DNA of 64,000 bases from Desulfobacterales bacterium (lineage in GTDB: Bacteria; Desulfobacterota; Desulfobacteria; Desulfobacterales; UBA5852), in contig CAXXVS010000003.1 of the NCBI GenBank assembly GCA_963674755.2, positions 1,856,001 to 1,920,000 of the forward strand, in the 5' to 3' direction. Shown in pieces: positions 23,481 to 52,212 of this stretch. Within the stretch, counting starts at the first letter, position 1, and each line of letters begins with the position of its first letter. The translations under genes were made by a program, and so were the position numbers. The notes beneath the pieces were generated by a model that saw nothing but the letters and a program-made list of their open reading frames with translations, was not told where the DNA came from and did not search any database.

Positions 23481-23499
23481 ATTCCCAAATGACATAACC

Positions 23500-28015: not shown

Positions 28016-28061
28016 TATGTTATCTGTCCATGTTTAAAATAAATTTGATTTGATTGAAATA

Positions 28062-31020: not shown

Positions 31021-31040
31021 ACAAAAGGCAGCGCAAGGCC

Positions 31041-32204: not shown

Positions 32205-32249
32205 CCGGCTGCCAATGTTGCATACTATTTTTGCGACATTGGCAGCCGG
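32205..32249. terminator. Long hairpin, probable terminator for 32290..32778
   Basis: CCGGCTGCCAATGTTGCA ... TGCGACATTGGCAGCCGG. Confidence 0.55.
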
Positions 32250-32289
32250 GTTCGACAAGGTGATTAATTGATTGTGTGGCTCCTAATTT

Positions 32290-34535: not shown

Positions 34536-34604
34536 AGCAACCTTTCCTGGTGACCCACAGAGGAGAGTGGTGAGTTAATTAATAACAATTAAGGTGCGAC
34601 CCTC

Positions 34605-35630
34605 TTAGTCCTCTATTTTTTCTTCTGCCGACACAACAACTTCGGTGACTTCGTATGTCCGTGATCCTTTGAAACTTAGCCATGGACCAACCTCTTTTTG
34701 TGAAACCAACGGTCCAGTATTTTTTGACGGCAAGGATATTTCTGGGCCCCTGAATAGAACAACGTTTTTTCCGCCATATCGTAGGCTGCTGCTAAACTGC
34801 ATTCCGTTGATATAGAAAGGATTGTTTTCCGTATGACACATCAGGTCTTTGAAGTCCCATAATCGCAAAAATTCAGTGAATGCTTGTGTTGGTACATATT
34901 CGATTTCTTGGTCCATTGGTCTTATCGGTCTCGAAATATCGGCGACGAAATCGCGGATAAATGAGACCCATCTTTCATAATTATATGAGTAGTCCTCACA
35001 GAAAATGCTTGGTGCCTCTTGTGTCTTTCCTGACAAATCAATAACTGTTAGAGTCTCATTTGTCTCGAATTCTCCAACAACGACAGCTTCCCCAACGCTT
35101 GGCCTTAATTCGCTTATACAAGTCTCTGGTTCTAATGCACCATAAAAAAATGATATTCCAGCAGGGCTCATCCTGTTATTACAGGCAATCATAGGTGGTG
35201 GGCTTGTTAAGTCTTCATGCTCATATTTTTTGTCGGATTTTAGTATTCTCGCCCTGTAAATCGTTCTGCCTTGATCGAGCATGTTGAAATGTGTGTTGGC
35301 CAAATCGCTGACCAAAGATTTCATGAATTCTGATGGCTTAAATAAATCATAATCGGGCTCAACTTCATTCAAGAACGCGGTGTACCTTCGATTGGTCTTT
35401 ATTATTTTACAGAATTTTTCCCAATGATATATTTCATCTGATTCGCCCCTTGAAGGGCCATATGGGTCTCTTTGAACATAGTGCCCTATCTCATCCGGGA
35501 CAGCCTCGTTAATGAATTTGGCTGAGTCATTTATTTTTTCGCTGAATATCTCTTCTTCCCACATTAAAATCTCGTAAAGAGTATCTGGTGTAATATCGTA
35601 TCCATCATCAGCCGAACAATAGCCAACCTG
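34605..35630 (-). pseudogene. RES-domain protein, N-terminally truncated
   Basis: YRAR...NRMSPAGISFFYGA...E...YVPTQ...FSSS; first about 20 codons of the ORF derive from GC-rich flanking DNA. Confidence 0.7.
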
Positions 35631-35806
35631 GTTTACCGACCACGACCTGGTTGGCCTGGCCGGCGATATCGCCGATATCGACGGTCTTACCATTCCCGCT
35701 CGGTTGACCTAATGCGGGTTCGGCGTCTTTCAGGATTCTTTCGAGTCTTTCCCTGCGGTCTCCTTCGCTCATGGGGCCCCCTTTGCAAGGGCAGCGCGAT
35801 GCGCGA

Positions 35807-35983
35807 TCACGCCACGAGCTTCAACAGCCTCTCCACTGTTGCGGTTTCCGGCTTTTCCTCTTTATCCAGATACTCCTCGTACAGATACAGAATCACCTCG
35901 GCTTTCTTCTCGGGCGCCAGGCGGCGCTTGTGGCGCTCCAGCCAGTCCTCCACAACCCGGATCGTGTCGGCCAATAGAGCCAT
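35807..35983 (-). pseudogene. Second C-terminal remnant of a phage repressor-like protein
   Basis: Manual translation MALLADTIRVVEDWLERHKRRLAPEKKAEVILYLY...TVERLLKLVA*. Confidence 0.55.
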
Positions 35984-36265
35984 GTCGACTATGGCCTAAT
36001 CTCCCGTCCCCCATATTTATTTCAGGAGCTATTGCCTTGATGGATCAATGACTTGCTATGATTCTTTAGCGAGGCAACTTGAGAATGTCAATGTCTAATA
36101 AATTCAAGATGTCGGGCTATAATACTATCACTAACCCATTTTGCCAATTGAGGAGTCTGCAATATCCAATTATGGATAGCTGGTTGAATATTCACTGTCT
36201 TAGTTGGATGCTATACTAAGCAGAGCGGTCGAAATCATTAAAAATCCATTACCTATTAAACACGT

Positions 36266-36320: not shown

Positions 36321-36512
36321 TCACCGTGCCGAAAAGAACCCGGCCACCTTCTCACCATCCTTGTAGGCCCCATAGCCAATCCCAACCGCCAAGGCGGCTA
36401 ATCCCGTCGCTACGCCGACGGCCACGATCTGGGCAGGGCTTCCCTTGGCGTGCACGATCACCTTTTTGAAGGCCTCCACGGCCACCTGGATCACTTCCAC
36501 CTCGCCTGCCAA
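36321..36512 (-). CDS. Small single-pass membrane protein
   Basis: AAGGAGGT RBS then TTG start; IVAVGVATGLAALAVGIGYG helix. Confidence 0.6.
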   Translation of the reverse strand: MAGEVEVIQVAVEAFKKVIVHAKGSPAQIVAVGVATGLAALAVGIGYGAYKDGEKVAGFFSAR

Positions 36513-36523
36513 TGGACACCTCC

Positions 36524-37639
36524 TTACGCGTCTATGAGAACCACCTCGCCAAAGGGCACCGAGTGTTGGGCCCGGCCCCACTGCACCCACAGCACCGGAT
36601 AATCCGGGCCAATGTCGGGATAAAGGTTGCACTCAAGGTCCGTTAGGTAGATCAGGCAAGAGGGGTCGATGCCTTCCTTCTCGACCCACTCGAACACGGG
36701 CCTGAAGTCCGTGCCGCCGCCACCTATGAGATCGAGGCCCAGGGGCAGGTCCTGCCTGGTGACATGCTCGTGGCATTGGACCTGGTTGTCGCAGTAAAGG
36801 ATGTCGACTTCGGTGTCGTACTCCTCCAGGATTGATGAGACTTCGACGGCAAAGTGGTCGAGGGTCAAGGCGTCGATGCTGCCCGAGGTGTCCAGGGCGA
36901 TCACGAGACGCCCCAACTCCCGGGAGTTCAAGCCCGGCAGGCAGAGCCCATAGGCGAGATAACGGCGCGCGGGCGGAAGCCAGCTATAATTGTTCCGGGA
37001 GACCCGCTCGATAAACAACCTCAGGTACTCCTGCCAGTCCACGACGGGATCGAGCATGTTTTTTACAAGCCGCCGGATGGCCCGGGGGAGGTTGCCGGCC
37101 GCGCGGGCCTGCTGGGCCGCCTGGGCGATGTTCACCCGCCAGTGCGCCGATACCTGCTTGAACGCGGCTTCTGTATTAACAGGTGCGTCGCGCACCTCGC
37201 CGTCTCCCGCCGGATCCGAAGGCCAGCCGTCGAGCTCCTTCATCTTGGCCGGCAGCCGGTCATAGATCCACTCGGCAGAGTGTCCGGTGTATATCGGATG
37301 CACCAGTTTGCCGTCAGGCAATTTAAGACCGGTCTCCTCCAGGATGGGGTTGATGGCCAGGTCGCAGGCGATGTTCCACCGAAGGGGGTCCCGCTCCTCC
37401 CGGCGGGTGTGGTGCAGACAGGCCAGGTGCATCACCTCATGGGCCACCAGGCCAACGGTGGCCCTTTTGGACAGGCTTTCCGCAAATTCCGGGTTTACCG
37501 CGAGCACCACGCCGTCCGTGTAGGCGGTCTCCATGGAGTCGTCCTCGATGATGACCAAACGCAGCGCCAGGCTTCCTAAGAAGGGCGCATCCAACAGCAG
37601 CTGGGTCCTTGCCCAGGATATTTTGTTTATCGTTCTCAT
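36524..37639 (-). CDS. Putative metallopeptidase plus VWA-like domain protein (DUF2201-like)
   Basis: TAYTDG, AHEVMH, WNIACD, LDTSGSI (MIDAS), GGGGTDF, YLTD. Confidence 0.88.
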   Translation of the reverse strand: MRTINKISWARTQLLLDAPFLGSLALRLVIIEDDSMETAYTDGVVLAVNPEFAESLSKRATVGLVAHEVMHLACLHHTRREERDPLRWNIACDLAINPILEETGLKLPDGKLVHPIYTGHSAEWIYDRLPAKMKELDGWPSDPAGDGEVRDAPVNTEAAFKQVSAHWRVNIAQAAQQARAAGNLPRAIRRLVKNMLDPVVDWQEYLRLFIERVSRNNYSWLPPARRYLAYGLCLPGLNSRELGRLVIALDTSGSIDALTLDHFAVEVSSILEEYDTEVDILYCDNQVQCHEHVTRQDLPLGLDLIGGGGTDFRPVFEWVEKEGIDPSCLIYLTDLECNLYPDIGPDYPVLWVQWGRAQHSVPFGEVVLIDA

Positions 37640-38493
37640 GCCGCCTCCATGTATCCGTTCATGGCATCGAGGACACCCAGGGCTGCCTGGGCGGTCTGCT
37701 GCCGTACCTGGTGATCCCGGCGAAGCTCCTCCGGGGTGAACCGGCAAAGGTCGGACTCGATCTGCCGGCGCATGTCCTCAAGCTGGGGGTCGTCATACAG
37801 GTTCAACCGGGGAAGCAACTCGGTCAGCCGCACGATGTTGCCGACGAGCGAGTCCCTGAACACCGCGTCCGGATCCGAGAGGCGCTCCACCATGTGACCG
37901 ACCACGGCAAAGAGCCGCTGCCAAAGATCCCGGTGGGCCACGGCATTGGCCGCATCCAGGCGCTCCTCGATGTCCTGCTGAATGGCGGCCACCTCGTCGG
38001 CTGCCAGGTTGACCCGGAAGTCATCGACCTCGGGCACGGGGGTGATCACGGTGCGGAAGGCGAACTTGTCCCGGATCTCGGAGGCCTCCGGGTAGTCCTC
38101 ACGGTTGAAGAGACCGCCCAGCATGCGGCGGGCTTCAAAAATCACCTCGGGATAGCCCCTGACGAAGTTGTCCACCGCGGCTTCGAACTCGGCTTTAAGG
38201 GCCCGCATCTGCCGGGCGTATTCACTGTAGTTGCGGCTGGGGAGGAGCCGTTCGCCTCGTTCACCCCAGGGCAGGGTCTGCTCCTGGTGAAATACACGGG
38301 CGCTGCATACAGCCGTCTGGATGTCCTTCAGGGCCTCTTTTGCGGCCAGCACCTTGTTGAAACGGCCGGCATCGACCTCGCCGCCGTACTGGGCGTTCAC
38401 CTCGCGTGAGACGTTCTTGTCGTGTTTTCTTGCGGACCACTGCTGGATCTGCAAGGCGGCCAGCATGGCCTTTTCCGATATGTCATATGGCAT
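37636..38493 (-). CDS. Conserved phage/ICE hypothetical protein (DUF3150-like)
   Basis: WSARKHD...TLPW...DYP motifs; coupled between the AAA and VWA genes. Confidence 0.65.
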   Translation of the reverse strand: MPYDISEKAMLAALQIQQWSARKHDKNVSREVNAQYGGEVDAGRFNKVLAAKEALKDIQTAVCSARVFHQEQTLPWGERGERLLPSRNYSEYARQMRALKAEFEAAVDNFVRGYPEVIFEARRMLGGLFNREDYPEASEIRDKFAFRTVITPVPEVDDFRVNLAADEVAAIQQDIEERLDAANAVAHRDLWQRLFAVVGHMVERLSDPDAVFRDSLVGNIVRLTELLPRLNLYDDPQLEDMRRQIESDLCRFTPEELRRDHQVRQQTAQAALGVLDAMNGYMEAA

Positions 38494-38520
38494 GGTGTAT
38501 ATATCCTTTCTGTTTAGTAA

Positions 38521-39516
38521 TCAGGTCATGACGTTGTGGTGCCGGGCCGCCCACGTGGCATAGGCCCGGGTGTTGACGATGGAAGAATTAAGCCGCTCGC
38601 TATCGGTCAACAGCAGCACCGAGAACTCCTCGGGCAGGTGCGCGGCATAGGTAACCAGCCTATCCATGTTCTCGGGCCTTGCCAGAAGGGCCAGGGCGGC
38701 GCAGACGGCATAGAGCGTTGCCGGGTCCTCCGGCACGAAGGCTTCTTCGGGTTTCATCAGGATGAGCCGCGGGTCCGGCAGCTGACGGCTGATTTTAAGA
38801 AAGCCCATCAGCTCGGCGGCAAAGCCCTCTCCTGCCGCACCGGCATAGGCTTCGAACTCGAGCGTCTCGGGAAGGCCCATCTTCATCAGATGCCCCACGT
38901 TGGCCACCGTGCGGGGGCAGGGGGAGTTCTTCATCTCGGAGGTGGGGTTGAAGTCGAACAGGAGCTGCGGCCGGAACCGGATAAAGGCGATCAGCTCGGG
39001 GGGCAGGTGGTGGGATGTGGCCCAGGCGGCCCACTCCTCCACATCCGGGTCGAGCTCCACGATGGAGACGAAGCGGGACTTCACGGGTTCCAGGATACCG
39101 GCAACACCGGCCTTGTCCCGTTTACGGTTGGTGGCGGCCATGAAGCAGACCTGGTCCGCCACGGCAAAGCCGTTGATGCGGCGTGCCAGAATAAGCTGCA
39201 TGGTCGCGGCCTGGACCGCCGGCGGGGCCTGGCCCAGATCGTCCATGAAGTAGACCGTGGGCTGGTCCGCATCGATCAGCTTCCTCAACGACCCAAAGGG
39301 CAGAAACTCGGCATGGTCCTCCCGGATGGCGGGGAGGCCCTTGTAGTCGATGGGCTCGTCCACCACCGGGTGGCTGATGACAAGATCGGCGCGGGCCGCT
39401 CGCGCAGCCTGGGCGACGAGGTCGGTCTTGCCAACCCCGGGGGGCCCTTTGATTAAGACCGGCAGGCGCGCCGTGATGGCGCCTTCCAGAAGTTCTTGCA
39501 GTTGACTTGGTTTCAT
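38521..39516 (-). CDS. MoxR-like AAA+ ATPase
   Basis: GPPGVGKT, YFMDD, AATNR, SRF, CPRT. Confidence 0.88.
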   Translation of the reverse strand: MKPSQLQELLEGAITARLPVLIKGPPGVGKTDLVAQAARAARADLVISHPVVDEPIDYKGLPAIREDHAEFLPFGSLRKLIDADQPTVYFMDDLGQAPPAVQAATMQLILARRINGFAVADQVCFMAATNRKRDKAGVAGILEPVKSRFVSIVELDPDVEEWAAWATSHHLPPELIAFIRFRPQLLFDFNPTSEMKNSPCPRTVANVGHLMKMGLPETLEFEAYAGAAGEGFAAELMGFLKISRQLPDPRLILMKPEEAFVPEDPATLYAVCAALALLARPENMDRLVTYAAHLPEEFSVLLLTDSERLNSSIVNTRAYATWAARHHNVMT

Positions 39517-39605
39517 GTGGTGTGTTCCCTCCAGAAACAAAAATACCCGCAGCCATCGTTGATGACCCGGGCGGTTAGGGTAGGGGGTTATGGTTGGTAA
39601 CTTTG

Positions 39606-40013
39606 GCTATGCCGTGTGCCACCTGCTGCAGGCATCGGCATACTCGCAGTCGGTGCACATCCAGCCGCGGTTCGGGATAAAGACACTCGAATCGATGCCG
39701 TGCAGTACGCGGGCGGCGAAGTCGTTCGACAGGGATACCACCTCGCCGGTCTCCTTGGCCCGGGTGATGGCGCTCGATCCGAACTGGGTCTTGGTGATGG
39801 CACCGGTGGAAAGCCGCCCAGCACCAGGATCTCGTTGTGCTGCTCCAGCACGCCGTGCTCGACAACTTCGAAGCTCCAGGCGCCGTCCAGGGCGTCGTTT
39901 AAGCGCTGGATCACGGCATGGCCCTCGACATAGTCGAGTCGGTTGCCGAAGGGGCCCTGCCGCTGGCGGATCTGGGCGGGGTCGAAGGGTTGTTCCAGTA
40001 GGTCACGGTTCAT
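39606..40013 (-). pseudogene. Rad52/Sak-like annealase fragment fused to a nuclease C-terminal tip
   Basis: PFDPAQIRQRQG...YVEGHAVIQRLN...WSF; frameshift; ends PNRGWMCTDCEYADAC. Confidence 0.7.
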
Positions 40014-40102
40014 GGATGGGTCTCCTTTCTGGGCTAAAAAGCGGGCATGGCGATAGACGTCGCAAGTGGGGTTGGTCAGAGGTGGCGAGCTGTTAAGGGG
40101 CC

Positions 40103-40370
40103 ATGCGGCAAGTCCCGGATGAAGGCTTCCTTGAACCCGCCGGCCTTCTTGCCGCGGTAGCGCAGGGCCAGGCGCAGGAACCCGCCGCGGGTCATGACGT
40201 AGGCCCTGCGGGTTTCGTTCTTTTTGTCCCGATAATCAACCGGTCCAAAATTGGATCGGTTAAAATCGTTAGAAACATCAAGTGCTTAGATATCTCGGAT
40301 GACATGTCCGTGCTTCTTGCCAAAGGACTCGGCCACGGCCAGGCTGGTGGTGACGGGGGTGTTGTGGTCC
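40103..40370 (-). pseudogene. Rha-family fragment
   Basis: Nucleotide blocks matching TPVTTSLAVAESF and AYVMTR..FL.LALRYRGKK of the adjacent gene. Confidence 0.7.
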
Positions 40371-40434
40371 TGAACCGACTACGCTCATTCCTTCGATTGG
40401 ATTCCTGGTTGAACTGCTCCGCGAACCGAGCGGG

Positions 40435-40989
40435 TTATTTGCCGCGGTAGCGCAGGGCCAGCTCCAGGAACCCGTCGCGGGTCATGACGTAGGCCTTCTG
40501 CGGACGGTTCCATTGGTCCGTGTAGGAGGTCGCTCCAAAATTGGAGCGACCAAAATCCTCTGTAACATCAAGCCCTTCGATGTCACGAAGGACATGCCCG
40601 TGCTGCTTGCTGAAGGACTCGGCCACGGCCAGGCTGGTGGTGACGGGGGTGTTGTCGGCGTCTAAAACGACGAGCTTCTCCATCCGGTTGAACTCCCGGA
40701 TGAAGCTCTCCCGGAACCGCTTGGCCTTCTTGCCGCGGTAGCGCAGGGCCAGGTCCAGGAACCCGTCGCGGGTCATGATGTAGGCCTTCTTCTGACGGTT
40801 CCATTTATCCGTGTAGGAGATGAGCCCAAATTTGGGCTCACCTATATCCTCTGTAACATCAATAGCTTCGATGTCACGTAGGACATGCGTGTGCCGCTTG
40901 CCGAAGGACTCGGCCACGGCCAGGCTGGTGGTGACGGGGGTGTTGTCGGCGTCTAAGGTGACCAAGGAACATAGGGGATCCTGGGTCAC
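40435..40989 (-). CDS. Rha-family phage regulatory protein with tandem duplicated domain
   Basis: TTSLAVAESF.K.H.HVLRDIE...MTRDGFL occurs twice. Confidence 0.85.
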   Translation of the reverse strand: MTQDPLCSLVTLDADNTPVTTSLAVAESFGKRHTHVLRDIEAIDVTEDIGEPKFGLISYTDKWNRQKKAYIMTRDGFLDLALRYRGKKAKRFRESFIREFNRMEKLVVLDADNTPVTTSLAVAESFSKQHGHVLRDIEGLDVTEDFGRSNFGATSYTDQWNRPQKAYVMTRDGFLELALRYRGK

Positions 40990-41223: not shown

Positions 41224-41571
41224 ATGGCCCAACACACGCGGATTGATCTACAAATCATCAAGAGAAACGGGAAGCCGCTATTCGCGGTGATCCCGTATGA
41301 AGAATACCTCGGCCTCGTTTCTGAATGCGGCCGCGAGGGCGAGGCGCTAATCCCCCACGAAGTCGTGGGAATGGTCATCAAGCATGAAATCGGCCTCGTG
41401 AAGGCTTGGCGTCAGTATCTGGGCCTTAGCCAGCAGCAGGTTGCCGAGCGTGCTGGCCTTAGTCGGTCGACCGTTTCACGAATCGAAAACTCCTACAGCA
41501 CCCCGCAAGGCCGTGTATTGGACAAACTGGCCGCAGCAATGGGGATCTCAGCCAAGCAGTTGATCGATTGA
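41224..41571 (+). CDS. XRE-family HTH protein, HigA-like antitoxin type
   Basis: GKPLFAVIPYEEY, KAWRQYLGLSQQQVAERAG; GGAGG RBS. Confidence 0.8.
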   Translation: MAQHTRIDLQIIKRNGKPLFAVIPYEEYLGLVSECGREGEALIPHEVVGMVIKHEIGLVKAWRQYLGLSQQQVAERAGLSRSTVSRIENSYSTPQGRVLDKLAAAMGISAKQLID

Positions 41572-41667: not shown

Positions 41668-44600
41668 TTATCCAAAAACTACATCAACGGATTTTACCGC
41701 TGGGATTTCGAGTAAATCGCTTTTGAGCTTCTCGCCCACGTCAACCCTCAAATCATCGACAAGGAGGGCAATATTTTGTGAGCAGTTATCCCCACCATTA
41801 TCATCATGTAAAAAAACTTTAACGGCACCCGGGTGTTCTTCAAGTACCTTGATCAGTTCTTCGGCTGAGGATTGCACGAGGCCTTCTTTTTGGTCTATAA
41901 ATACGTGCAAGCTTTGGGCAATGTCTGATACAGCCTCATCTATGGTCTTAACGGTCCTTACCACCATTTGGTTCCTGCCATTGCGATGCTCTACTGCTCC
42001 AGAAAAATACAGCGTTTCGCTGAGACTTAGCTTAGGGCGAAATAAATAATAACTTGGCATGAACATTACGGCCTCGATCGTCCCAAGCGCATCTTCGAGG
42101 GTTATAAAACACATGTTTTTCCCTGTTTTTGTCTTTATGTCTTTAACAGCTTGGACGTTTCCGATAAATCGAACAGTCGCCCTGTCGCGTGCGAGAGCGA
42201 ATTCCTTGCTCCCAGTACACCCCATCGTTTTGATAATCCCCTGAAGCGCGCGATTAGGATGGTCTGATAGATAGAACCCCAAGGCTTCTTTTTCAGCCTG
42301 CATAAAATCAGACACTTTCACGCTGTCATTCGTTTTGCTCAGCTCTGATAAAAGAACTTGCCGTGAAAAACCCGTTGAATCGAAAGCCCCGCTTTTAACA
42401 AGGGATTCGATAACCCGTTTGTTTACAAGTCTACTATCCGTGCGTTTTCTAAAATCAGTTAGTGTCCTAAAAGGAGCGTCCTCCCTCGCCTTTAGGATGT
42501 TCTGCACAGCGGGTTCTCCTACATGTCTGATTGCCGTAAGGCCATAGCGAATTGCGCCGTCATCGATGGAAAACTGTTCACCGCTAAAGTTAACGTCGGG
42601 GGGTAAAACCGGAATTTCGTGGCTGCGACACTCGGCCATGTATTTGACGACGCCGTCGGTGGAATGCATTTCACTGGTCAGCAGGGCGGCCAGAAACTCC
42701 ACCGGGTAGTGGGCTTTCAGGTAAGCCGTCTGATAGGCAATCAGCGCATACGCGGCGCTGTGGGACTTGTTGAACCCGTAGCCGCCGAACTTCTCCATGA
42801 GGTCGAAGATGCGCTTGGCTTTGTCCTCGGGGATCTGGTTCTCCTGGGCTCCGGCCATGAAGGAGTCCCGGTGCTCAGCCATTTTCTCAGCGATTTTCTT
42901 GCCCATGGCCTTGCGCAGGTCGTCGGCCCTATCCATCGAGTAATTGGCCAGTTCGGCCGCGATTTTCATGACCTGTTCCTGATAGAGAATGACCCCATAG
43001 GTCTCCTTCAGGATCGGTTCCAGTTGTGGAACGCTGTAGACCACCGGCTTGCGACCGCGCTTGCACTCCACGAAATCGTCCACCATGCCGCTGTCCAAGG
43101 GACCCGGCCGGTAAAGAGCCAAAAGCGCCGTGATATCCTCGAATGAGGCCGGCTTCAGGCGCACCACCAGCTCCTTCATGCCCGTGCTTTCCAATTGGAA
43201 TACCCCCGTGGTGTCGCCGTTGCACAGGAGGTTGTAGGTCTCCCGGTCGTCGAGATCGAGGTCGGCCATGTCCGGTATGGGCTTGCCCTGGTCAGCCAGC
43301 AGCGAGAGGGTCTTGGCAATTACCGTTAGGTTGCGCAGCCCCAGGAAGTCAAACTTCACGAGCCCCGTCTTCTCGACATGCTTCATGTCGAACTGGGTAA
43401 CGACTTCCCCCTTTTTCCCCCGGTATAATGGAAGGTACTCAGTCAGCGGCTTGTCGCCAATGACGGCCCCGGCGGCATGGGTGGAAGCATGCCGCGGCAG
43501 TCCCTCCAGAACCCGACAAATTTGAAGCAACTCTTTGATTTCCGGACGGGTGGCGGCCAGTTCGTTGAACTTGGGCTCATGGAGAATCGCGTCGTCCAGG
43601 CTGATGTTGAGGACATCCGGCACCATCTTGGCGATGGCGTCAACCTCCCGCAAGGAAATCCCTAAAGCACGTCCCACATCGCGAATGACCGCACGGGCTT
43701 TAAGATTACCAAAGGTGATGATCTGGGCGACGTAGTCGCCGCCGCCGTACTTATCCACGACATACTTGTAGACCTGGTCGCGGCCGTTGATGCAGAAGTC
43801 CACGTCGATATCCGGCATGCTGATGCGGGCCGGATTGAGAAACCGTTCGAAGATCAACCCGTGCTCAATGGGGTCCAGATCGGTGATGCCCATGGCATAA
43901 GCCACCATACTGCCTGCGGCCGAGCCGCGCCCGGGTCCCACCGGGATGCCGTTGTCCTTGGCGTAGCGGATGAAGTCGGCCACGATCAGGAAATAGCCGG
44001 AAAACCCCATTTCCTTTATAACTGATATCTCGTAGTCCAGCCGCTCGTTGTAGACGGATTGATCGAGGTCCGCCTGTTTTTCGAGGATCTTGGCCATGCG
44101 GCCGCGAAACCCCTCGCGCACCGTGTGCTCGAAGAGGTCCTCGGGGGGAATGTCTTCAGGGGCCTGGAATTTGGGAAAGTGGTAGGAAAAATCGAATTCG
44201 TAGGCGCAGCGCCGGGCGATATCGAGTGTGTTGGAGACGGCGCCGGGATAATCGGCGAAGGAAGCCGCCATCTCCTCGGGCGACTTGAAATAGAGCTGGT
44301 CCGTGCTGAAGCGAAAGCGGTTGGTCTCGTTGACGGTTTTGCCGGTCTGGATGCACAGCAGGACGTCGTGGGCGCGCACGTCCTCTTTATGGAGGTAGTG
44401 GCAGTCGTTGCTGGCCACCAGCGGAATGGAAAGCCGCTGACTCATGTCCCACAACGTCCGGTTGACCGTCTCCTGGATGTCGATGCCATTGTTTTGGACC
44501 TCGAGGTAGAAGCGGTTCTCTCCGAACAGTGCCTGGTACCAGCGCGCCGCCGCATCGGCCTGGTCAATGTGGCCGTTTTTGATGTGCATGGGAATTTCCC

Positions 44601-45033
44601 CGCGCAGACAGGCGGAAAGCGCGATAAGCCCCTCGTGATGGGCTTCCAGAAGCTGCTTGTCAATGCGTGGGCGATAATAGAACCCCTCCATCTGGGCGAT
44701 TGAAACCAGGCGGCAGAGATTGCGATAACCTTCCTGGTTTTCGGCGATCAGAACGAGGTGCGTCAGCCCCTTGGCGTCCTCGGGGGTCTTGTCGTTGATC
44801 GTGCGCGGGGCCACATAGACCTCGCAACCGAGGACGGGACGCAATCCCGCTTTTTTAGCCTTGGTGTATAACGTCATTACCCCGAACATGGTGCCGTGAT
44901 CCGTAATCGAAACGGCCTCCATTCCAAAAGCCTGCGCTTGGGCGATTAGCGGATCAATCCCGATCGCGCCGTCGAGCAGGCTGTACTGGGTGTGGACGTG
45001 GAGGTGGACGAAACTGCTTCTGATACCGGGCAT
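41668..45033 (-). CDS. dnaE: DNA polymerase III alpha subunit (island-borne copy)
   Basis: PHP motifs HLHVH/TDHG/NDCHY; GRGSAAGS; PDIDVDF; KFDFLGL; YGFNKSH; OB fold. Confidence 0.95.
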   Translation of the reverse strand: MPGIRSSFVHLHVHTQYSLLDGAIGIDPLIAQAQAFGMEAVSITDHGTMFGVMTLYTKAKKAGLRPVLGCEVYVAPRTINDKTPEDAKGLTHLVLIAENQEGYRNLCRLVSIAQMEGFYYRPRIDKQLLEAHHEGLIALSACLRGEIPMHIKNGHIDQADAAARWYQALFGENRFYLEVQNNGIDIQETVNRTLWDMSQRLSIPLVASNDCHYLHKEDVRAHDVLLCIQTGKTVNETNRFRFSTDQLYFKSPEEMAASFADYPGAVSNTLDIARRCAYEFDFSYHFPKFQAPEDIPPEDLFEHTVREGFRGRMAKILEKQADLDQSVYNERLDYEISVIKEMGFSGYFLIVADFIRYAKDNGIPVGPGRGSAAGSMVAYAMGITDLDPIEHGLIFERFLNPARISMPDIDVDFCINGRDQVYKYVVDKYGGGDYVAQIITFGNLKARAVIRDVGRALGISLREVDAIAKMVPDVLNISLDDAILHEPKFNELAATRPEIKELLQICRVLEGLPRHASTHAAGAVIGDKPLTEYLPLYRGKKGEVVTQFDMKHVEKTGLVKFDFLGLRNLTVIAKTLSLLADQGKPIPDMADLDLDDRETYNLLCNGDTTGVFQLESTGMKELVVRLKPASFEDITALLALYRPGPLDSGMVDDFVECKRGRKPVVYSVPQLEPILKETYGVILYQEQVMKIAAELANYSMDRADDLRKAMGKKIAEKMAEHRDSFMAGAQENQIPEDKAKRIFDLMEKFGGYGFNKSHSAAYALIAYQTAYLKAHYPVEFLAALLTSEMHSTDGVVKYMAECRSHEIPVLPPDVNFSGEQFSIDDGAIRYGLTAIRHVGEPAVQNILKAREDAPFRTLTDFRKRTDSRLVNKRVIESLVKSGAFDSTGFSRQVLLSELSKTNDSVKVSDFMQAEKEALGFYLSDHPNRALQGIIKTMGCTGSKEFALARDRATVRFIGNVQAVKDIKTKTGKNMCFITLEDALGTIEAVMFMPSYYLFRPKLSLSETLYFSGAVEHRNGRNQMVVRTVKTIDEAVSDIAQSLHVFIDQKEGLVQSSAEELIKVLEEHPGAVKVFLHDDNGGDNCSQNIALLVDDLRVDVGEKLKSDLLEIPAVKSVDVVFG

Positions 45034-45100
45034 GTCGGCTCCTTTTCCAAAGTAGGTGTATTAGCGCGGTTCTTCATACTATATTGTGGAACCTAAGCAA

Positions 45101-45149
45101 CCGTTTTTTAAGGCGAAAAAATTTTTTCGCCATTCACTTAAAAAATCGG
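45101..45149. promoter_or_regulatory. Palindromic operator-like site in the divergent dnaE/primase intergenic region
   Basis: Perfect 20-bp palindrome GGCGAAAAAATTTTTTCGCC (45112-45131) nested in CCGTTTTTTAAG...CTTAAAAAATCGG. Confidence 0.6.
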
Positions 45150-45235
45150 CCCTCCCAATCCATCTATTCAATAGGTGTACTTAAATAAATACCTTTTTGA
45201 ATCGCGACCCAGCGAGGTCGGGAAAGGGAGGACAA

Positions 45236-45478
45236 ATGCTCAAGCGTATCGTTAGTCTCGGCAAAGAAAACAAGGTCAGGCAGGAAAAAGTAGTCTCGGT
45301 AACTGAACTTGCGTTGGCGGTGTCCCGGACGCTGAAAGACGTGCACTACACCAAGGAGAGGGTGCTTGTGACCAACCGGGGCAAAATCTTCGTGGCCATC
45401 GTGCCAGTGTCCGACGATGAAGCCCGGCGTACGATCGTTGTCCCGCAGAATCCGGGGGAGGAAGTTGATAGTGAGTAA
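45236..45478 (+). CDS. Phd/YefM-like DNA-binding protein
   Basis: VSVTEL...L..V....ERVLVTNRGK..VAIVPV pattern. Confidence 0.65.
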   Translation: MLKRIVSLGKENKVRQEKVVSVTELALAVSRTLKDVHYTKERVLVTNRGKIFVAIVPVSDDEARRTIVVPQNPGEEVDSE

Positions 45479-48008
45479 CAACTACCTCACCGAGAAATGC
45501 CTCGAACTCCTGCAAAGCAGCGAGTTCTGGGGGGCAACTACCTATACGAACGACCGCTACGTTGGCAACGTAATTTGTCCGGTGTGCAGGGAACCTGAAG
45601 CCTTTCTATACCTCGATAACCTAGGGGTGCTTGCCTGCAATCGCAAAAATAAGTGCGGGGCGGTTACAGCCATCAAGGAGCTTTTCCCCAACCTATATGC
45701 TGGGATCGAGGAAGAAAACCCCCCGACCGAGGATGATCCAAAGCGTCCAGCTATGGCCTACCTGGAATCACGGGGATTCCACAAAGCCCTTGAGGGCCTC
45801 TCCTACGAATACCGACAGAACGTTCGCGGCACCGGAAAGGGTGCGGTCATGATCCCCGTCGAGGCTGTGGGGGAAGACACCGTTTATAACGGGCGCATTT
45901 TCGATCCGCCGAAGAACGAGGGCAAGACCCACAACATCGGGTCTACATCAGGCAAAATCTGGCGTCACCCCGGAATCGCCTACGATCCAAACCGGGAAAC
46001 CATCATCACGGAGGGCATCTTCGACGCATTGTCATTGGTCGAGATGGGTTTTCAGGCCATCGCCGTTTTGTCAGCCGGTGTCGATCCGAATAAGCTTGAC
46101 TTAACATGGATAAGAAGACCCGTGCTGGCGTTCGATAACGACAAGGCGGGTATAAAGGCGCTTAAACGGTTCGCCGACTATTTCGAAGGCAAGGATCCCA
46201 ACGGCGGGCGGCCGGCCGCCATTTTGTGCCCGCGGGGGGATTGGAATGACTTCCTGCTCGCGGGTCCGGTGGGTGAGGCGATAGATCGCTTCGAAAAACA
46301 ACGCCCCGCCATGGAGGCCCATGCTGCCCTGGCTCTGGCCAAGACCGCCCAAGAATACGCCCAAATTTATTACAACGAGTTTAGGCGTTCGGGATTCTTT
46401 CCCTTTAATGGGAACTATTACTATTCCACCGTTAAAGAGAGTAAACAAGGTACCGAGGTCAAGACCAAGCACGTCGCTGACTTCACAATCGAAGTCCACC
46501 ACTTCAAGGTAAACGACTCTGACTCCGACGATACCTTTACCTACCACCTTCAGGTTACCAAGTGTAACGGGGAGACGCGGCACATTACTGTAACCGCTAA
46601 AGAGCTGAGTACACCATATGCCATGAAGGCGATGTTCCTGGGGCGTGCAAAAGCGCATTGGAAGGGCGATACCGCTGCGACCGAGGCGCTCATAGACCTT
46701 ATTGTAAGCGCAAAAGCCAAGGAAGTTCGGCAGCTTGAATTTACCGGATATGATCGCGAATCCGGCTGCTATGTGTATCCGACGCATATGGTTGCCACCA
46801 ACGGAGAATTGGTCCTGCCAAATAAGAAAGGGTTCTTCGACGTTGCAGGCAACAAGAGTGTACATCCGGCCCCATACAACTTTGCAATTTTACCGTCCAA
46901 CGGTGTGCAGGTGAGCAGGCTATACGAGTTGATGTTGGCGGCCTGGGGTTCTAAGGCCGCACTGGCGATCGCATGGGTCGTGGCAAGCTGGTTCGTAAAC
47001 CAGATCAAGAAGGAGATAGGTTTTTTCCCTTTTCTGTCGCTCTACGGTGACTCCCAGACGGGTAAATCCAACATGGTGAGGATCCTGAATGCGTTTCAGT
47101 GCATGGACGAAGAAGGCATGCCAATGTCGAAAACGAATACGGCAAAAGGCGAGCTCCGGAAGATCGCCCAGCGCTCAGGTAATTTCATTGCCATGCTGGA
47201 GTGGCCTCAGGATCCCAAAATGGCGCGTTTCGACATCGAGAAAATCCTGACGATGTTCAACAATAGCCCGCTGCAAGTTCGTGCTTTGAAGACAGCGGAC
47301 ATCCGCACTCACGAAATCCCGTTCTACGGGGCCTTAATGTTCGTCCAGAACGTAGAACCGCTTAAAACTAAGCCCCAGAAGGAGCGTGTTATCTCCTGCG
47401 CGTTCAAGGCCGATGATCTCGATGAAAATACCCGACGGGCCTTCATGACATTGGAAAAGATCTCGCTTAATGACAAGGCAAGCTTTTTTCGCGAGGTCAT
47501 GTCGCACCGGCAGACCATCGAATCCGAGTGGCATACGGCATATGGAAGGGCTCAAGAAGAGCTTCAGGACCTGGACATCAGCTCACGGATCCGTGAAACC
47601 CATGGCCTGATCCTGGGCTTTCACTACCTGCTTTGCACGTTTTTTGGGTTCGACGTCGATCTTATGCCGTATCTAACTGAAATTATGCGGAAAAAAGAAC
47701 TTGCGTGTGCAACCGAGCCTGAAACTGTCGCGGATCACTTCCTCGGCATCCTTCTCTCCTTGCCAGAGCCGGACTCCAACAAGGATTTTATACATATTGC
47801 CGGCAACGAGCTCTGGGTTCAGAAGGCGAATGCGGAGAAGGCGATACGGGAGCAGGGATACACCTTGAACGCGTCCGAGATGGCGCTCGCCACCGCCCTT
47901 AGCAATCACCCCGCGTTTATTCGGCGAAATACACACCGGTTTAACGGCACACCGATGAATGGTCACCTCTTCGACTACCGTAAACTGCGGGAGGCCTACG
48001 CTTCCTAA
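45471..48008 (+). CDS. Primase-helicase (Zn finger, TOPRIM, P-loop NTPase)
   Basis: CPVC...CNRKNKC; ITEGIFDALS; FDNDKAG; DWND; GDSQTGKS; GTG start overlapping the upstream gene. Confidence 0.88.
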   Translation: MSNNYLTEKCLELLQSSEFWGATTYTNDRYVGNVICPVCREPEAFLYLDNLGVLACNRKNKCGAVTAIKELFPNLYAGIEEENPPTEDDPKRPAMAYLESRGFHKALEGLSYEYRQNVRGTGKGAVMIPVEAVGEDTVYNGRIFDPPKNEGKTHNIGSTSGKIWRHPGIAYDPNRETIITEGIFDALSLVEMGFQAIAVLSAGVDPNKLDLTWIRRPVLAFDNDKAGIKALKRFADYFEGKDPNGGRPAAILCPRGDWNDFLLAGPVGEAIDRFEKQRPAMEAHAALALAKTAQEYAQIYYNEFRRSGFFPFNGNYYYSTVKESKQGTEVKTKHVADFTIEVHHFKVNDSDSDDTFTYHLQVTKCNGETRHITVTAKELSTPYAMKAMFLGRAKAHWKGDTAATEALIDLIVSAKAKEVRQLEFTGYDRESGCYVYPTHMVATNGELVLPNKKGFFDVAGNKSVHPAPYNFAILPSNGVQVSRLYELMLAAWGSKAALAIAWVVASWFVNQIKKEIGFFPFLSLYGDSQTGKSNMVRILNAFQCMDEEGMPMSKTNTAKGELRKIAQRSGNFIAMLEWPQDPKMARFDIEKILTMFNNSPLQVRALKTADIRTHEIPFYGALMFVQNVEPLKTKPQKERVISCAFKADDLDENTRRAFMTLEKISLNDKASFFREVMSHRQTIESEWHTAYGRAQEELQDLDISSRIRETHGLILGFHYLLCTFFGFDVDLMPYLTEIMRKKELACATEPETVADHFLGILLSLPEPDSNKDFIHIAGNELWVQKANAEKAIREQGYTLNASEMALATALSNHPAFIRRNTHRFNGTPMNGHLFDYRKLREAYAS

Positions 48009-48016
48009 ACGGCGGA

Positions 48017-48301
48017 GGTTACGGATATTACACCGTGTTACTACAGGATTACATAAAAATAATAATAATTTTAGTATCTTATAATATATGTAATCTTGTA
48101 ACAAAAAAAATATAGGAGGACCCAATGGCAATCAATATGCGTGAACCGCGCGTCGAATCAGACGTGCCCATACAAAGTGCAGATAGGTATAAAAATCGAA
48201 TTACATCGGTTACACAGGTTACAGAATATCTAAGGTACATAAATAAAAAGGAAAATTATGTAATCTCAGGCGTTGGCCGTAAGGTTACCCCGAGCTTACA
48301 C
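48017..48301. repeat. Putative replication origin: (G/A)TTAC iterons around AT-rich cores
   Basis: Clustered GTTAC/ATTAC copies with inverted GTAAT/GTAAC copies directly after the primase stop. Confidence 0.65.
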
Positions 48302-48676
48302 ACCGTCTCGACCCTCGGTGTCGTAGCCCCGGCCGAGGAGTACCTGTTATGTATGGGGGTGCATTGTCCATCTTTGGTTCCGGGAAATGCGCCCTCATGT
48401 AAGGAGACAGGGCTGACCGTATACCAGATATTCGAGGTCAACGGAGGGTGTCCACATGGACAATGGCGCCGCTACAAATCGACATCGACCGAAGCCCAAT
48501 TGCCAAGCACCTGCAATGTCTGCGGAGGTAGAGACTGGTGGCAACCGAAAATCAGTAACACACGAATTTGCGCCCGGTGCCATCCACCGGTCGTTCCGGA
48601 GAGCCAACTGCTCAGAGCGAGTGTTGAAGCCGTCACCCTGTCACTTAATAACCAAGGAGATCAAGACGATGAATAA
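48125..48676 (+). CDS. Hypothetical Cys-rich protein overlapping the putative ori
   Basis: GGAGG RBS; CNVCGGRDWW...CARCHPP. Confidence 0.45.
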   Translation: MAINMREPRVESDVPIQSADRYKNRITSVTQVTEYLRYINKKENYVISGVGRKVTPSLHTVSTLGVVAPAEEYLLCMGVHCPSLVPGNAPSCKETGLTVYQIFEVNGGCPHGQWRRYKSTSTEAQLPSTCNVCGGRDWWQPKISNTRICARCHPPVVPESQLLRASVEAVTLSLNNQGDQDDE

Positions 48677-49220
48677 CAACAATTTCCCAGTTTCTTTAGA
48701 GACGCCACATGTGCCTCGATTTGAGGCCCAGAACGGGGAGATCACCCCGGATACAGGCGGCACCGACGACCTTGAAACGTTTTACCAAGCTGCCATGCTG
48801 ATCACCGGCACGCGCAACAAGGAACTGGCGATCACCCTGTTGAACCAGGTGGCTATGTCTCAGGGAGAGCTTACGGCCTCCTCCTTACCAAAAATCAATG
48901 GTGCATTAGCAGCGGTGGCAGAGTTCGCGCCTAGGGATGTTACAGAGACGCTGCTGGTGTCCCAGATGGTCGCTTCTCACAACTTGAGTATGAAATTCAT
49001 GTCCCGTGCGGCCAAGGTCTCCAGCGTCGATCTGCAGAAGAGCTATCTTAACAGCGCCTCGAAGCTGTCCCGGCTGTTTGTCTCACAGGTCGAAACGCTT
49101 CGTCGGTATCGCCAGAAAGGTAGTCAAAAAATGACCGTAGAGCACGTTCACGTCCATGAAGGCGGCCAAGCCATAGTAGGCAGTGTGACCCAAGAAAAAA
49201 AGGGGGGGGCGGGTGAATGA
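48669..49220 (+). CDS. Conserved hypothetical protein of satellite-like elements
   Basis: PRDVTETLLVSQMVASH...QKMTVEHVHVHEGGQAIVG; coupled to the HGGxSTG gene. Confidence 0.75.
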   Translation: MNNNNFPVSLETPHVPRFEAQNGEITPDTGGTDDLETFYQAAMLITGTRNKELAITLLNQVAMSQGELTASSLPKINGALAAVAEFAPRDVTETLLVSQMVASHNLSMKFMSRAAKVSSVDLQKSYLNSASKLSRLFVSQVETLRRYRQKGSQKMTVEHVHVHEGGQAIVGSVTQEKKGGAGE

Positions 49221-49492
49221 AAAAGCACGAGGAACAACCCCATGCACGCATCTGCGGCGCCATGACCCGCAGCGGCTCCCCTTGCAAGAACCGATCGGTC
49301 ACTGGGAGGCGCCGCTGCCGCATGCACGGCGGTGCACCGGGATCGGGTGCTCCACTGGGCAATTCGAACGCTTTAAGACACGGCTTCTACACGGAGGAGG
49401 CCAAGGCCGAACGACGTGAAGTCCGGCGCCTGATTGAGGACAGCGAAGCCCTGCTCAAGAGCTTGACGGAAGCAGTTAACCGCAGAAGGTAG
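49217..49492 (+). CDS. HGGxSTG-motif protein (terminase small subunit N-terminus-like)
   Basis: CGAMTRSGSPC...RCRMHGG...GNSNALRHGFY. Confidence 0.8.
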   Translation: MKKHEEQPHARICGAMTRSGSPCKNRSVTGRRRCRMHGGAPGSGAPLGNSNALRHGFYTEEAKAERREVRRLIEDSEALLKSLTEAVNRRR

Positions 49493-49846
49493 AGCCCACC
49501 ACGGCCAAGCGCGCGACAATCGATGCCACACCCCACCCATCAATCCATCCATACCGCGCGCCAACATTCAGCATAGTCGGGAATCAGCATAGCGTGGTCG
49601 ACTTTTCCGCGTGCGTGACGCGCAGGTCGTCCTATCGGCTTTTGCTGTCTTAAACAAATCGCAATTTTTTTTATCGGTTTACTTAACTTTTCCCCCCGTT
49701 TTTCCATTATTTGGTCAACCTCCCGGAACAGGAGAATCTCGGTGCGATCAAGGCGCCACACCGGGATTCGACGACCGGGGTAACTTTCGCTCCGGAGGCA
49801 CATCCAGGAGCTCAAAGACAAGCCCTTGAAGGGCATGGAGAACACT

Positions 49847-50149
49847 ATGCTTAACACAGAGCAAATTGACCGGGAACTGATGGAGATGGCGAGATCATCG
49901 GATTATTCTCTTCTTTGGGATGACCTTTTAACGGAAGGAAAGCCGGACATGAAGGCTTGGCTTCAACGGATAGCGCTCTATATCGCCCAAAACAACGACG
50001 AGATAACGTTGCACCAGTTCGTTGAAATAGTCGCCATGGCCCGTACGGGCATTCTGCAGGAGATCATGAGCCGGGCCAGCCTTTCCGACGTTTTTGAAAA
50101 CGCCATTGCGGCGCACTATCAGAGCCGAACAGCCGCTGAGGTGGGCTAA
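49847..50149 (+). CDS. Hypothetical protein
   Basis: GGAG RBS; co-oriented with island core genes. Confidence 0.5.
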   Translation: MLNTEQIDRELMEMARSSDYSLLWDDLLTEGKPDMKAWLQRIALYIAQNNDEITLHQFVEIVAMARTGILQEIMSRASLSDVFENAIAAHYQSRTAAEVG

Positions 50150-50371
50150 CTCAATCGCCATGTTACCCTCCGCCTATTCTCAGCACAAACCGAGTCCCTG
50201 TCTCCAACGCATCAATCGATCAAATTATCCATCCGGACAGGGGCTCGGCCACACCAAAAAAAACCGCGAAAGTCGCCCGGCTGGTTGGCGCCGGGTGGAC
50301 ATCGCGGCACGGATGGAGTCGATGCGGATATGACGTTGGATGTTACCAGACCTGAGAGAAGCGAAGTCGTT

Positions 50372-50701
50372 ATGAACACGCCGAAAGGCCGGGAAGGCCA
50401 GGTCGCCGGGCGCAAGCGTCCGCGCAAGGGGCGGCCGGCAGCAGACAAAATGCCTCCAATGTATTATACTCAACGCGAAGTGGCCGACCTGTTCCGGGTG
50501 AGCCAGGGCACCGTCATCAAGTGGCGCGGCCTGGGCTACCTGGAATACCTGCGGCCGCCGGGGTCCAACCGGGTGCTCTACACCGTAGCGAGCGTGGAGC
50601 GCTTCCAGGACCAATTCACCCGCCGGGAGGAGGTGACCAAGCCACCGATTGATATCAGCAGTTGCAGGCGTGTCGCTCCAGCTAAGGACTGGAGGTTATG
50701 A
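50372..50701 (+). CDS. Excisionase-like HTH protein
   Basis: YTQREVADLFRVSQGTVIKWR; ATGA overlap with the integrase. Confidence 0.8.
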   Translation: MNTPKGREGQVAGRKRPRKGRPAADKMPPMYYTQREVADLFRVSQGTVIKWRGLGYLEYLRPPGSNRVLYTVASVERFQDQFTRREEVTKPPIDISSCRRVAPAKDWRL

Positions 50702-51843
50702 TGGCCAAAAAGAACCTGAATCACCACATGTTCAAGCGGAGCGGCACATGGTATTTTCAGATGATGGTCAAGGGACGGCCCTACAAGAAGGCCCTGAGCA
50801 CGGACGTCTCCCAGGCGAGGCTGCTGCGGGACCAGTTCCTGCACAAGATCCGCTGGGGGCATCTGGACGTCCAGCGCGAGCGCAAGGTCTTGGGGGAGGT
50901 CGCCAAGCAGTGGATCCGGCTTGAGGAGATGAAGTTGCAGCCGTCCACCCTGAGGGACTACCGCGGCATCATGAACTGTCACGTGCTGCCGCATTTTGGT
51001 AACTGGTACATCGACGAGATCCGGCCGGTCGATGTGGAGGAGTTCATGGCCACCCGGACCTGCGGCGCCAAGCGGATCAACAACATCCTGTGCCCGCTGC
51101 GCTCGCTTTTTCGCATGGCCAAGAAGAACGACTATGTCGAGCGCAACATCATGCTCGATGTGGAAAACCTCTCCGTGGACAGGCCGCACATCAGCCCACT
51201 GTCGATGAAGGAGGCCGCAAGCTTTCTTGATGCGATCGAGGACACCATCTACCGCAACTTCTTCGTGGTCGCGTTTTTCACCGGCATGCGGCTGGGGGAG
51301 CAGACGGCGCTCAAGTGGCGCGAGGTGGACTGGGAGCGCAAGTCCATCTCGATCGTGGAGTCACGCGTGATGGGTATCGAGGGCCGGCCCAAGACCAAGG
51401 GGTCCTATCGAGACATCGACATGCTGCCCGTGGTCGAGGCGGCGCTCAAGGACCAGCGCAAGCAGAACCGGGCCAAGTCGCGCTACGTATTCCTCAATAA
51501 CGACGGCAAGCCCGTCGACGGCGAGACGCTGCGGAAGACCACCTGGACGCCGGGGTTGAATCGCGCCGGTTTGGAATACCGCTCCATGTACCACACGCGG
51601 CACACCTTCGCGACCTTGATGCTGTCTTCCGGGGAGAACATGGGCTGGGTGCAGCGGATGATGGGGCATGCGTCGCTCAAGATGATCCAGGAGCGCTACT
51701 ACCGGTACATCCCGAATCTGACCCATGCCGACGGCAGCGCGTTTGCGAAAAAGTTCGGCACGGACCTTGCTCGAGTTACCCCAAATCTACCCCATAACGA
51801 CGAAAGGGAACACCTCGCCCAGGTAATCCCCTTAAATCGTTAG
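50698..51843 (+). CDS. Tyrosine integrase
   Basis: TGMRLGE, PKT, YHTRHTFA, MGH, Y; ends 17 bp from the tmRNA 3' end. Confidence 0.95.
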   Translation: MMAKKNLNHHMFKRSGTWYFQMMVKGRPYKKALSTDVSQARLLRDQFLHKIRWGHLDVQRERKVLGEVAKQWIRLEEMKLQPSTLRDYRGIMNCHVLPHFGNWYIDEIRPVDVEEFMATRTCGAKRINNILCPLRSLFRMAKKNDYVERNIMLDVENLSVDRPHISPLSMKEAASFLDAIEDTIYRNFFVVAFFTGMRLGEQTALKWREVDWERKSISIVESRVMGIEGRPKTKGSYRDIDMLPVVEAALKDQRKQNRAKSRYVFLNNDGKPVDGETLRKTTWTPGLNRAGLEYRSMYHTRHTFATLMLSSGENMGWVQRMMGHASLKMIQERYYRYIPNLTHADGSAFAKKFGTDLARVTPNLPHNDEREHLAQVIPLNR

Positions 51844-51860
51844 TAATTTTTGTCGAGAAA

Positions 51861-52212
51861 TGGTGGAGGCGGCGGGAGTCGAACCCGCGTCCGAAAGCAT
51901 TCCACATGGGCATCTACATGCTTATCCCGAACTTTGAGTGTCAGCCCTCGGGGCCCTTTCGGGCGAGGTCCCTTCGGACTTATCCTGATTAGAGTTTCGC
52001 GCCTGTCCCATCAGGCAAGGACAATTGCTATCCCGCTAGTCGACGCCCTTTCCAGACCCGCAGGAGTAGCCTGGAAGGACGGTAGCTATGCAGCTACGGC
52101 GTAGTTATAATCGTCTGCGATTATATTTAGTTTTCCCGTCGTTTTACGAGCGGACAGGAAGCTCGACATGCAGCCGACGCTTCTTTGCCCCCGTCGAACC
52201 CGTTTCGCCCCC
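51861..52212 (-). ncRNA. ssrA: tmRNA
   Basis: 5' GGGGGCG pairs with 3' CGCCTCC-ACCA (G3-U); T-arm GTTCGAC; tag ADDYNYAVAA* at 52086-52118; smpB nearby. Confidence 0.97.

Follow-up and report, generated by a model that had tools for sequence, protein, structure and literature searches.

The window analysed here, a stretch of 64,000 nucleotides from a Desulfobacterales bacterium (assembly GCA_963674755.2, contig CAXXVS010000003.1, positions 1,856,001 to 1,920,000), contains in its right part the end of an integrative island that encodes its own family C DNA polymerase. The polymerase gene, dnaE (41668..45033, reverse strand), specifies a DnaE1 enzyme of 1121 amino acids (aa) that is a chimera of host and element sequence. 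It is transcribed divergently from a primase gene (45417..48008, forward strand), which is followed by a predicted origin (48018..48288) and, all on the forward strand, by genes for an HGGxSTG protein (49217..49492), an excisionase-like helix-turn-helix (HTH) protein (50285..50701), and a tyrosine integrase (PF00589; 50698..51843) that is transcribed toward the attachment site attR (51858..51886). This site is a 29-bp direct repeat of the 3' end of the tmRNA gene ssrA (51861..52212, reverse strand), the integration target, and its partner attL, outside the window at positions 1820097-1820125 of contig C3, is the sole other 29/29 copy of the repeat in the genome. A preliminary description, made from the sequence alone, had placed a tmRNA-integrated element with these genes here, and in this it was right, but the limits it gave (41668..51860) did not hold: from att to att the island measures 87,761 bp, includes metabolic cargo, and extends some 36 kb to the left of the window. 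In the closest relative, G004, synteny with the window genome picks up again right past attL. The scanned open reading frames (ORFs) of the island, a selection of about 100 aa or more, matched no capsid, tail, relaxase or type IV secretion system (T4SS) family, as had been claimed for capsid, tail and conjugation genes; no match in the genome was found for PF03135 (T4SS), nor for PF03237, the single terminase family searched. With neither relaxase nor T4SS among these ORFs and no PF03135 in the genome, an integrative and conjugative element was rejected. In the contigs of the sequencing runs, no attP/attB joint is present and the depth of the island is not raised, but such contigs drop rare variants, so that inactivity is not implied.

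The host genome of 6.7 Mb encodes three family C polymerases, which are the core DnaE1 (1176 aa, its gene adjoining guaB on contig C2), DnaE2 (adjoining imuB on contig C3), and the enzyme of the island. The latter is itself of the DnaE1 type, as it reaches 1375 bits against PRK05673 (cut-off 1002) and has the PHP-Pol3-HhH-OB-CTD architecture with the catalytic aspartates D408, D410 and D562. An assignment to DnaE2/ImuABC was rejected, since the CTD is present, PRK05672 stays below its cut-off, and the real dnaE2 is the one next to imuB. The PHP and catalytic motifs, the OB and the CTD are intact, by residue equivalence to E. coli DnaE, and an AlphaFold model from 105 sequences (predicted local distance difference test, pLDDT, 93) shows both the OB and the CTD fold in full; solved structures of Pol III alpha match this model.

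The gene does not stand alone. The order dnaE / regulator, primase, Cys-rich ORF, partner gene, HGGxSTG gene is syntenic in the window and in two other genomes, with dnaE divergent and head-to-head with primase and origin in all three contexts. One of these genomes is G421, a Desulfosarcina metagenome-assembled genome in which the module (locus L053) sits with an integrase (24% identical) at a tRNA-Arg gene; the other, found in a search of 31 genomes of the genus of G421, is G441, in which the module is interrupted by an insertion sequence (IS) and the primase is frameshifted. The primase is carried by 1 of 17 and 2 of 65 genomes in two host families, always with an adjoining dnaE, and the three dnaE-linked primases fall into one clade (FastTree, Shimodaira-Hasegawa-like support (SH) 99) together with five proteins without context (P0002-P0006), which includes none of the 16 dnaE-less loci in the tree. 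As this is neither the only dnaE of the genome nor a linkage confined to it, the preliminary description of an integrative element with a family C polymerase is right, while its wording of a self-contained module has to be dropped, because no clamp, clamp loader or single-stranded DNA-binding protein family is found among the island ORFs; the only dnaN of the genome lies outside the island. The chimeric nature of the enzyme, its missing clamp motif, and the 88-kb size with metabolic cargo go beyond that description.

Further element-type enzymes are rare. A profile of the three C-terminal tails, searched against 1.84 billion representative sequences, has P0349 (286 bits) and P0350 (267 bits, partial) as top matches, followed by core-type proteins at 220 bits, and tail searches of a 90% protein set returned only the enzymes of the window and G421 as element-type (word-limited candidates). 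The same profile gave no further element-type match in 401 genomes of the order, judged by score and match span for the best 5 candidates per genome, in a scan that missed several known core genes; for genome contigs, a single-protein scan gave nothing and an alignment-based scan gave matches. Scans of viral sequences contained no primase locus with a dnaE, and the DnaE loci found there have 27-37% identity.

The island DnaE is a host/element chimera, the front of which was likely swapped in by recombination. Relative to the core DnaE of the same genome, it is 81-87% identical over aa 1-820, 49% over aa 821-900, and 24-25% beyond, and relative to the core enzymes of the host genus, residues 1-805 are 81-88% and residues 901-1121 22-27% identical. 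From aa 805 to aa 809 (window 42621-42609) the diagnostic sites change from host-genus to element type, and at this crossover the GC content of third codon positions (GC3) drops from 0.83 to 0.44, with values of 0.74-0.83 in the host-genus-type part (aa 1-805; 42619..45033, reverse strand) and of 0.36-0.49 in the element-type part (aa ~809-1121; 41668..42611, reverse strand). Trees were calculated with 26 of 43 collected DnaE sequences. For the front, the window copy is nested among the host-genus cores (SH 99), the copies of G421 and G441 are sister to Desulfosarcina cores (99), and a clade of the three element copies is rejected (approximately unbiased test, p-AU 2.8e-59); for the tail (residues 835-1121), the three element copies form one clade (100/100), and with P0349 and P0350 added all five are in one clade (SH 100). 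P0350 has a front with 81-82% identity to host-genus cores, compared with 78% to the window copy, and switches to the element type between aa 767 and 786; as this crossover is a different one and a clade of the window copy and P0350 is rejected (p-AU 0.0036), a second, separate exchange in the same genus is implied. Synonymous divergence (dS) between the front of the window dnaE and its own core gene is 1.29 (nonsynonymous divergence, dN, 0.09), and for other species of the genus dS is 1.06-1.08, a distance to the own core that is like that of another congeneric species and thus indicates that the donor was a congener or that the swap is old. At the DNA level, the front shares only about 80% identity with the core dnaE of the same genome, and contigs of two samples from one study, one of which may be the source sample, span the crossover without differences. 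Both facts, together with the module in two other genomes, refute the idea of a one-off capture or an assembly chimera, in favour of which the rarity of the gene, with no further copy in the scanned order genomes, could be cited.

The tail has features of its own. The QxxLF clamp motif is present in 40/40 cores (at about aa 918) and in 0/5 element-type enzymes, in which the loop is shorter by about 22-36 residues (the window copy lacks about 36 residues near 42325), and all five element enzymes end right after the CTD and thus without the basic extension of the cores. According to the cited passages of a survey of bacterial polymerases, the motif is found in 99% of DnaE1 enzymes, with some primary DnaE1 enzymes having no recognisable one (Timinskas et al., PMC3919608). 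Element tails are 31-53% identical to each other and about 16-31% to cores, and between the tails of G421 and G441 the proportion of nonsynonymous differences (pN) is 0.30 with synonymous differences (pS) saturated. The tails could in principle belong to independent host dnaE duplicates that decay, with a tail clade produced by long-branch attraction, and there are indeed long branches in the tail tree, and an independent clamp-less duplicate exists in G286. Nevertheless, this explanation is very improbable and largely refuted: besides being closer to each other than to cores, the tails share the end point, the loop deletion, private residues, and a one-residue deletion in the HhH (also found in core G019), the synonymous base composition steps at the crossover, and the genes stand in synteny with a single primase clade. 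The second dnaE of G286 (L262, G286:C38:57743-59362; cut by the contig end), which lacks clamp motif and CTD and has its third catalytic aspartate replaced, is of a different kind, and it was rejected as a member of the element clade because its tail is 41-46% identical to cores and 27-31% to element tails. Folding the tail as a single sequence gave no usable model (pLDDT 35), and a complex prediction of the primase with aa 942-1121 of DnaE scored 0.00, which is evidence neither way.

The adjoining primase is a Zn-finger/TOPRIM/P-loop protein of a P2/phiCTX-like family (phrog_1139, E 4e-89; database start 45471). It had been described as a primase-helicase, of which the primase part is borne out, whereas the helicase part comes from a Walker A/B motif alone, with no match to a Pfam helicase family, and helicase activity is therefore only putative. 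In the predicted origin downstream, [GA]TTAC repeats point from both sides at an AT-rich core of 61 bp with 11% GC, a layout generally known from satellite origins. The 300 bp from 48018 contain 11 of these pentamers, which is the densest such cluster of the genome (next best 7), for a motif picked after the fact; in a motif-free control, any 5-mer occurred at least 9 times in 14 of 4000 random 300-bp windows. Comparable GTTAC/GTTGC repeats stand at the corresponding position in G421 and G441. Over the whole window, the hexamer GTTACA occurs about as often as expected (14 versus 13.9), so the enrichment is that of the local cluster only. The iteron origin of the preliminary description thus agrees with the repeats, as a prediction.

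The most likely reading, somewhat more probable than not, is that the island DnaE serves as a replicase of the element that works independently of the clamp, has its body renewed from hosts, and copies the excised island with the island primase at the predicted origin. In such a mechanism, integrase and excisionase would excise a circle, the primase-helicase would open the repeat-flanked AT core and prime, and DnaE would extend without direct beta-clamp binding, with an element partner probably holding its OB/CTD tail. The front ~770-805 residues would be replaced through homologous recombination with a dnaE of the host lineage, perhaps aided by the Rad52-like/PD-(D/E)XK pair of the element, and selection would keep the tail because it serves the element partner. 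Transfer would need a helper phage, either via the terS-like HGGxSTG pair or by transduction. The wider generalisation, which is no more than tentative, would be a clade of helper-dependent elements in sulfate reducers with a clamp-independent Pol III-type replisome, in which nothing of the polymerase is kept but the tail, as the part coupling to the element's primase-helicase, and the whole catalytic and proofreading body is repeatedly replaced per host lineage.

Several observations weigh against an element replicase with a renewed body. Apart from the long branches already mentioned, the front of P0349, which is 53-57% identical to all sequences sampled, fits none of the sampled hosts and may never have been swapped, P0349 and P0350 are known as proteins only, without genomic context, and the Rad52/nuclease pair of the window is broken. 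In E. coli, mutation of the internal beta-site abolishes replication by alpha, according to the cited part of the McHenry review (PMC10850973), and a clamp-less DnaE may thus be ill-suited to replicating 88 kb. A dnaE is missing from most loci with relatives of the primase: from 91 fetched loci, 87 matched the primase and one (L053) has a dnaE, which corresponds to 1 of the 28 loci with at least 4 kb of upstream DNA (some of them duplicates), and the 108 upstream ORFs examined at 26 primase loci matched no polymerase family, from which it follows that the primase works without dnaE. Conversely, the dnaE of G441 is intact though its primase is frameshifted.

These last two points, as well as the clamp motif missing in 5/5 with the CTD retained and the recombination genes in the same arm, would also suit a selected chimera that is not a bulk replicase, being either a polymerase of low processivity that fills gaps or serves recombination together with the Rad52-like/PD-(D/E)XK pair, or a decoy that binds host tau via the CTD and slows the forks of host or helper phage, with host Pol III copying the circle. 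This can be regarded as possible but rather unlikely, as dnaE is divergently linked to primase and origin in 3/3 contexts, a tau decoy would be expected to follow the host in its tail, which is the very part that fails to do so, and the window has kept dnaE and lost the Rad52/nuclease pair. The island DnaE might also enter the host holoenzyme as an ordinary alpha, with tau bound via the CTD, the clamp via another subunit, and the host-matched front keeping compatibility. The front tracks the host lineage in 4/5 copies, and the primary DnaE1 enzymes lacking a recognisable clamp motif (PMC3919608, in the passages cited) are in line with this, but the tau-binding CTD is merely 16-26% identical to cores and E. 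coli alpha needs the internal site (PMC10850973, in the part cited), and such a role is improbable.

By definition, the island is neither a phage-inducible chromosomal island (PICI) nor a pipolin. PICIs measure 9.5 kb in the median and at most 28 kb, and DnaE is not among their five core components as given in the cited passages (PMC10085698). Like these, the island has an integrase, a primase-replicase with an adjacent predicted origin, and no tail or lysis genes, and its core from integrase to dnaE is PICI-like with about 10 kb; the excisionase-like HTH protein and the weakly terS-like HGGxSTG protein are candidates for the small regulator and the small terminase. Unlike these, it measures 87,761 bp, has no match to a capsid-morphogenesis gene among the scanned ORFs, and contains DnaE. 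In its workings, it resembles a PICI or tycheposon core to which a polymerase has been added. The pipolin analogy of the preliminary description holds in that both are integrative elements encoding their own replicative-type DNA polymerase, but it is loose, since the pipolin enzyme is a self-priming, primer-independent family B polymerase in the cited account (PMC5695915), whereas the island has a family C enzyme depending on a separate primase and no family B polymerase among its scanned ORFs. With tycheposons, as far as the cited description goes (10.1101/2020.12.28.424599), the island shares a tyrosine integrase targeting tRNA or tmRNA, nitrogen-metabolism cargo, the lack of transfer genes, and the combination of a replication module, which in tycheposons can include polymerases, primases and helicases, with adaptive cargo. 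It differs in its integrase, which faces outward and ends at 51843 pointing at attR, so that an assignment to tycheposons was rejected, and in its host from a sulfate-reducer lineage, and that description names no family C polymerase. The tmRNA islands transduced by jumbo phage likewise use the tmRNA 3' end with direct repeats and a tyrosine integrase and have no autonomous transfer genes, but in the cited passages they carry defence cargo and no polymerase is named (PMC12595487).

Two DnaE1 copies were found in 7 of 945 genomes, including the deltaproteobacterium Desulfococcus oleovorans, whose second DnaE1 has an altered C-terminus with a Lar-like domain instead of the CTD (PMC3919608, cited passages). 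The island enzyme has the known DnaE1 architecture, but unlike 99% of DnaE1 enzymes the element clade is without clamp motif, and element linkage and host/element mosaics are not described in those passages. Mobile DnaEs are already known from phages: 1453 phage records match phrog_405, all less than 60% identical and 39-45% among the 15 listed, and the island differs from these in having no virion genes among its scanned ORFs and a front with 81-88% identity to host-genus cores. In the open literature, no integrative element with a clamp-less, host-swapped DnaE1 was found described, though the supplements of PMC3919608 and PMC12926913 may list such copies. The element-type enzymes are a natural set of DnaE1 proteins with catalysis under purifying selection and with the clamp site, thought to be essential for Pol III, deleted, and Pol III alpha without beta thereby becomes testable in matched pairs that have the same body and either a host or an element tail. 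Between a mobile element and its hosts, the body of a gene essential for replication has likely been exchanged two or more times in one genus and once more in a lineage sister to Desulfosarcina, and with the island, genes for nitrate and nitric-oxide respiration would pass from one sulfate reducer to another.

Between dnaE and primase, a small Phd/YefM-like regulator (45197..45478, forward strand; PF02604, E 4e-4, below cut-off) is kept in G421 and G441, and the divergent promoter region between dnaE and this regulator has a perfect 20-bp palindrome (45112..45131), a possible operator. The second repeat cluster of the predicted origin is overlapped by a Cys-rich ORF (48125..48676, forward strand) that was seen only in the three dnaE-carrying modules, with 32-33% identity to the homologs of G421 and G441. 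Next to it lies a conserved partner of the HGGxSTG gene (48456..49220, forward strand) without family, which adjoins HGGxSTG homologs in G421, G441 and 6 other genomes. The HGGxSTG protein itself matches NF041373 (45 bits, cut-off 29) and is weakly terS-like, with E-values of 5e-6 to 7e-4 to terS PHROGs and 24 bits to NF040601 (cut-off 120). A 107-aa ORF (49826..50149, forward strand) without family match is followed by the excisionase-like gene, the product of which scores just under the cut-off of HTH_17 and matches phrog_66 excisionases (E 3e-7) and, MerR-like, at E 4e-4; its true start is probably later, and the homolog in G010 has 91 aa. The integrase is 75.5% identical to one at ssrA in G010 and 47% to one at ssrA in G157. 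In sequencing run X4, a different organism has the HGGxSTG-integrase end (window 49131-51876) at 96-99% identity, with the primase almost uncovered, and one contig of depth 2 joins 44560 to 49220.

To the left of dnaE, the arm of the island contains an Xre-type HTH regulator (41224..41571, forward strand) and, on the reverse strand, three tandem Rha antirepressor units (40093..40989; 290-bp spacing, 71-83% identical), the remnant of a Rad52-family annealing gene and a PD-(D/E)XK nuclease gene (39588..40013), which have become fused through the loss of about 1.06 kb relative to G004, and genes for an AAA ATPase, a DUF3150-like protein, a DUF2201 metallopeptidase/VWA protein and a small ORF (36321..39540), which are common to the G421 element and to PolA-carrying sister elements. 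These sister elements, in G004 and G005 (L213:52-1868; L212:12355-16985), have the HGGxSTG pair and the same Rha-Rad52-nuclease-AAA-VWA arm, in which the AAA, DUF3150-like and VWA proteins are 73-97% identical, and in place of dnaE they encode a family A polymerase of 647 aa, which in G005 adjoins an 894-aa protein with a DnaB-type helicase domain. The common arm with a different polymerase suggests that these elements have a polymerase slot. The sister element of G004 sits at a tRNA-Leu gene, and G010 has the same integrase family at ssrA without primase or dnaE; from such mixtures of integrases, polymerases and cargo across G004, G005 and G010 it follows that modules for integration, replication and cargo reassort. 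An ssrA island in G157 (L211:4229-12352) combines the 47% identical integrase with the HGGxSTG pair and a D5-type primase-helicase, with no polymerase match to the queries used. In G421, the dnaE element is flanked by two more satellite-like elements (L053:16091-22445, L200:13464-19844), one of which has 10.7 kb, a 47-bp tRNA-Arg repeat at its ends, and a terminase-like gene (judged by eye). The dnaE element there lies on the 5' side of the tRNA, and an 83% copy of the integrase end and the 5' half of the tRNA is found 56 kb away.

The cargo of the island within the window (1..36000) comprises a molybdopterin oxidoreductase operon with NrfD, a sigma-54 regulator, DUF488 and HEPN-RES genes, and, as mobile genes, two resolvases and IS21, IS3 and DDE transposases. 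Left of the window follow molybdenum cofactor (Moco) genes, hcp (hybrid cluster protein), fprA, nar (respiratory nitrate reductase) and nor (nitric-oxide reductase). A second molybdoenzyme operon also belongs to the left part of the island. Homologs of narG occur in 3 of 5 congeners tested. G004 has the nor-nar block elsewhere, at 77-81% DNA identity, so that the cargo was likely acquired from congeners and accreted. Hemerythrins and a multiheme cytochrome are also part of the cargo (window 1-10547 and L001:12203 to L003:6000). A run of co-oriented ORFs (window 16879-21745), partly of 32-34% GC, which matched no Pfam family and a single PHROG without known function, is a possible defence cluster. 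An IS21-family element (window 24404-26618) has three more copies in the genome with 96.7-98.7% identity, and the two resolvases (11742-12170 and 30121-30549), which are 91% identical and separated by 18.4 kb, may mark the two ends of a nested unit of cargo.

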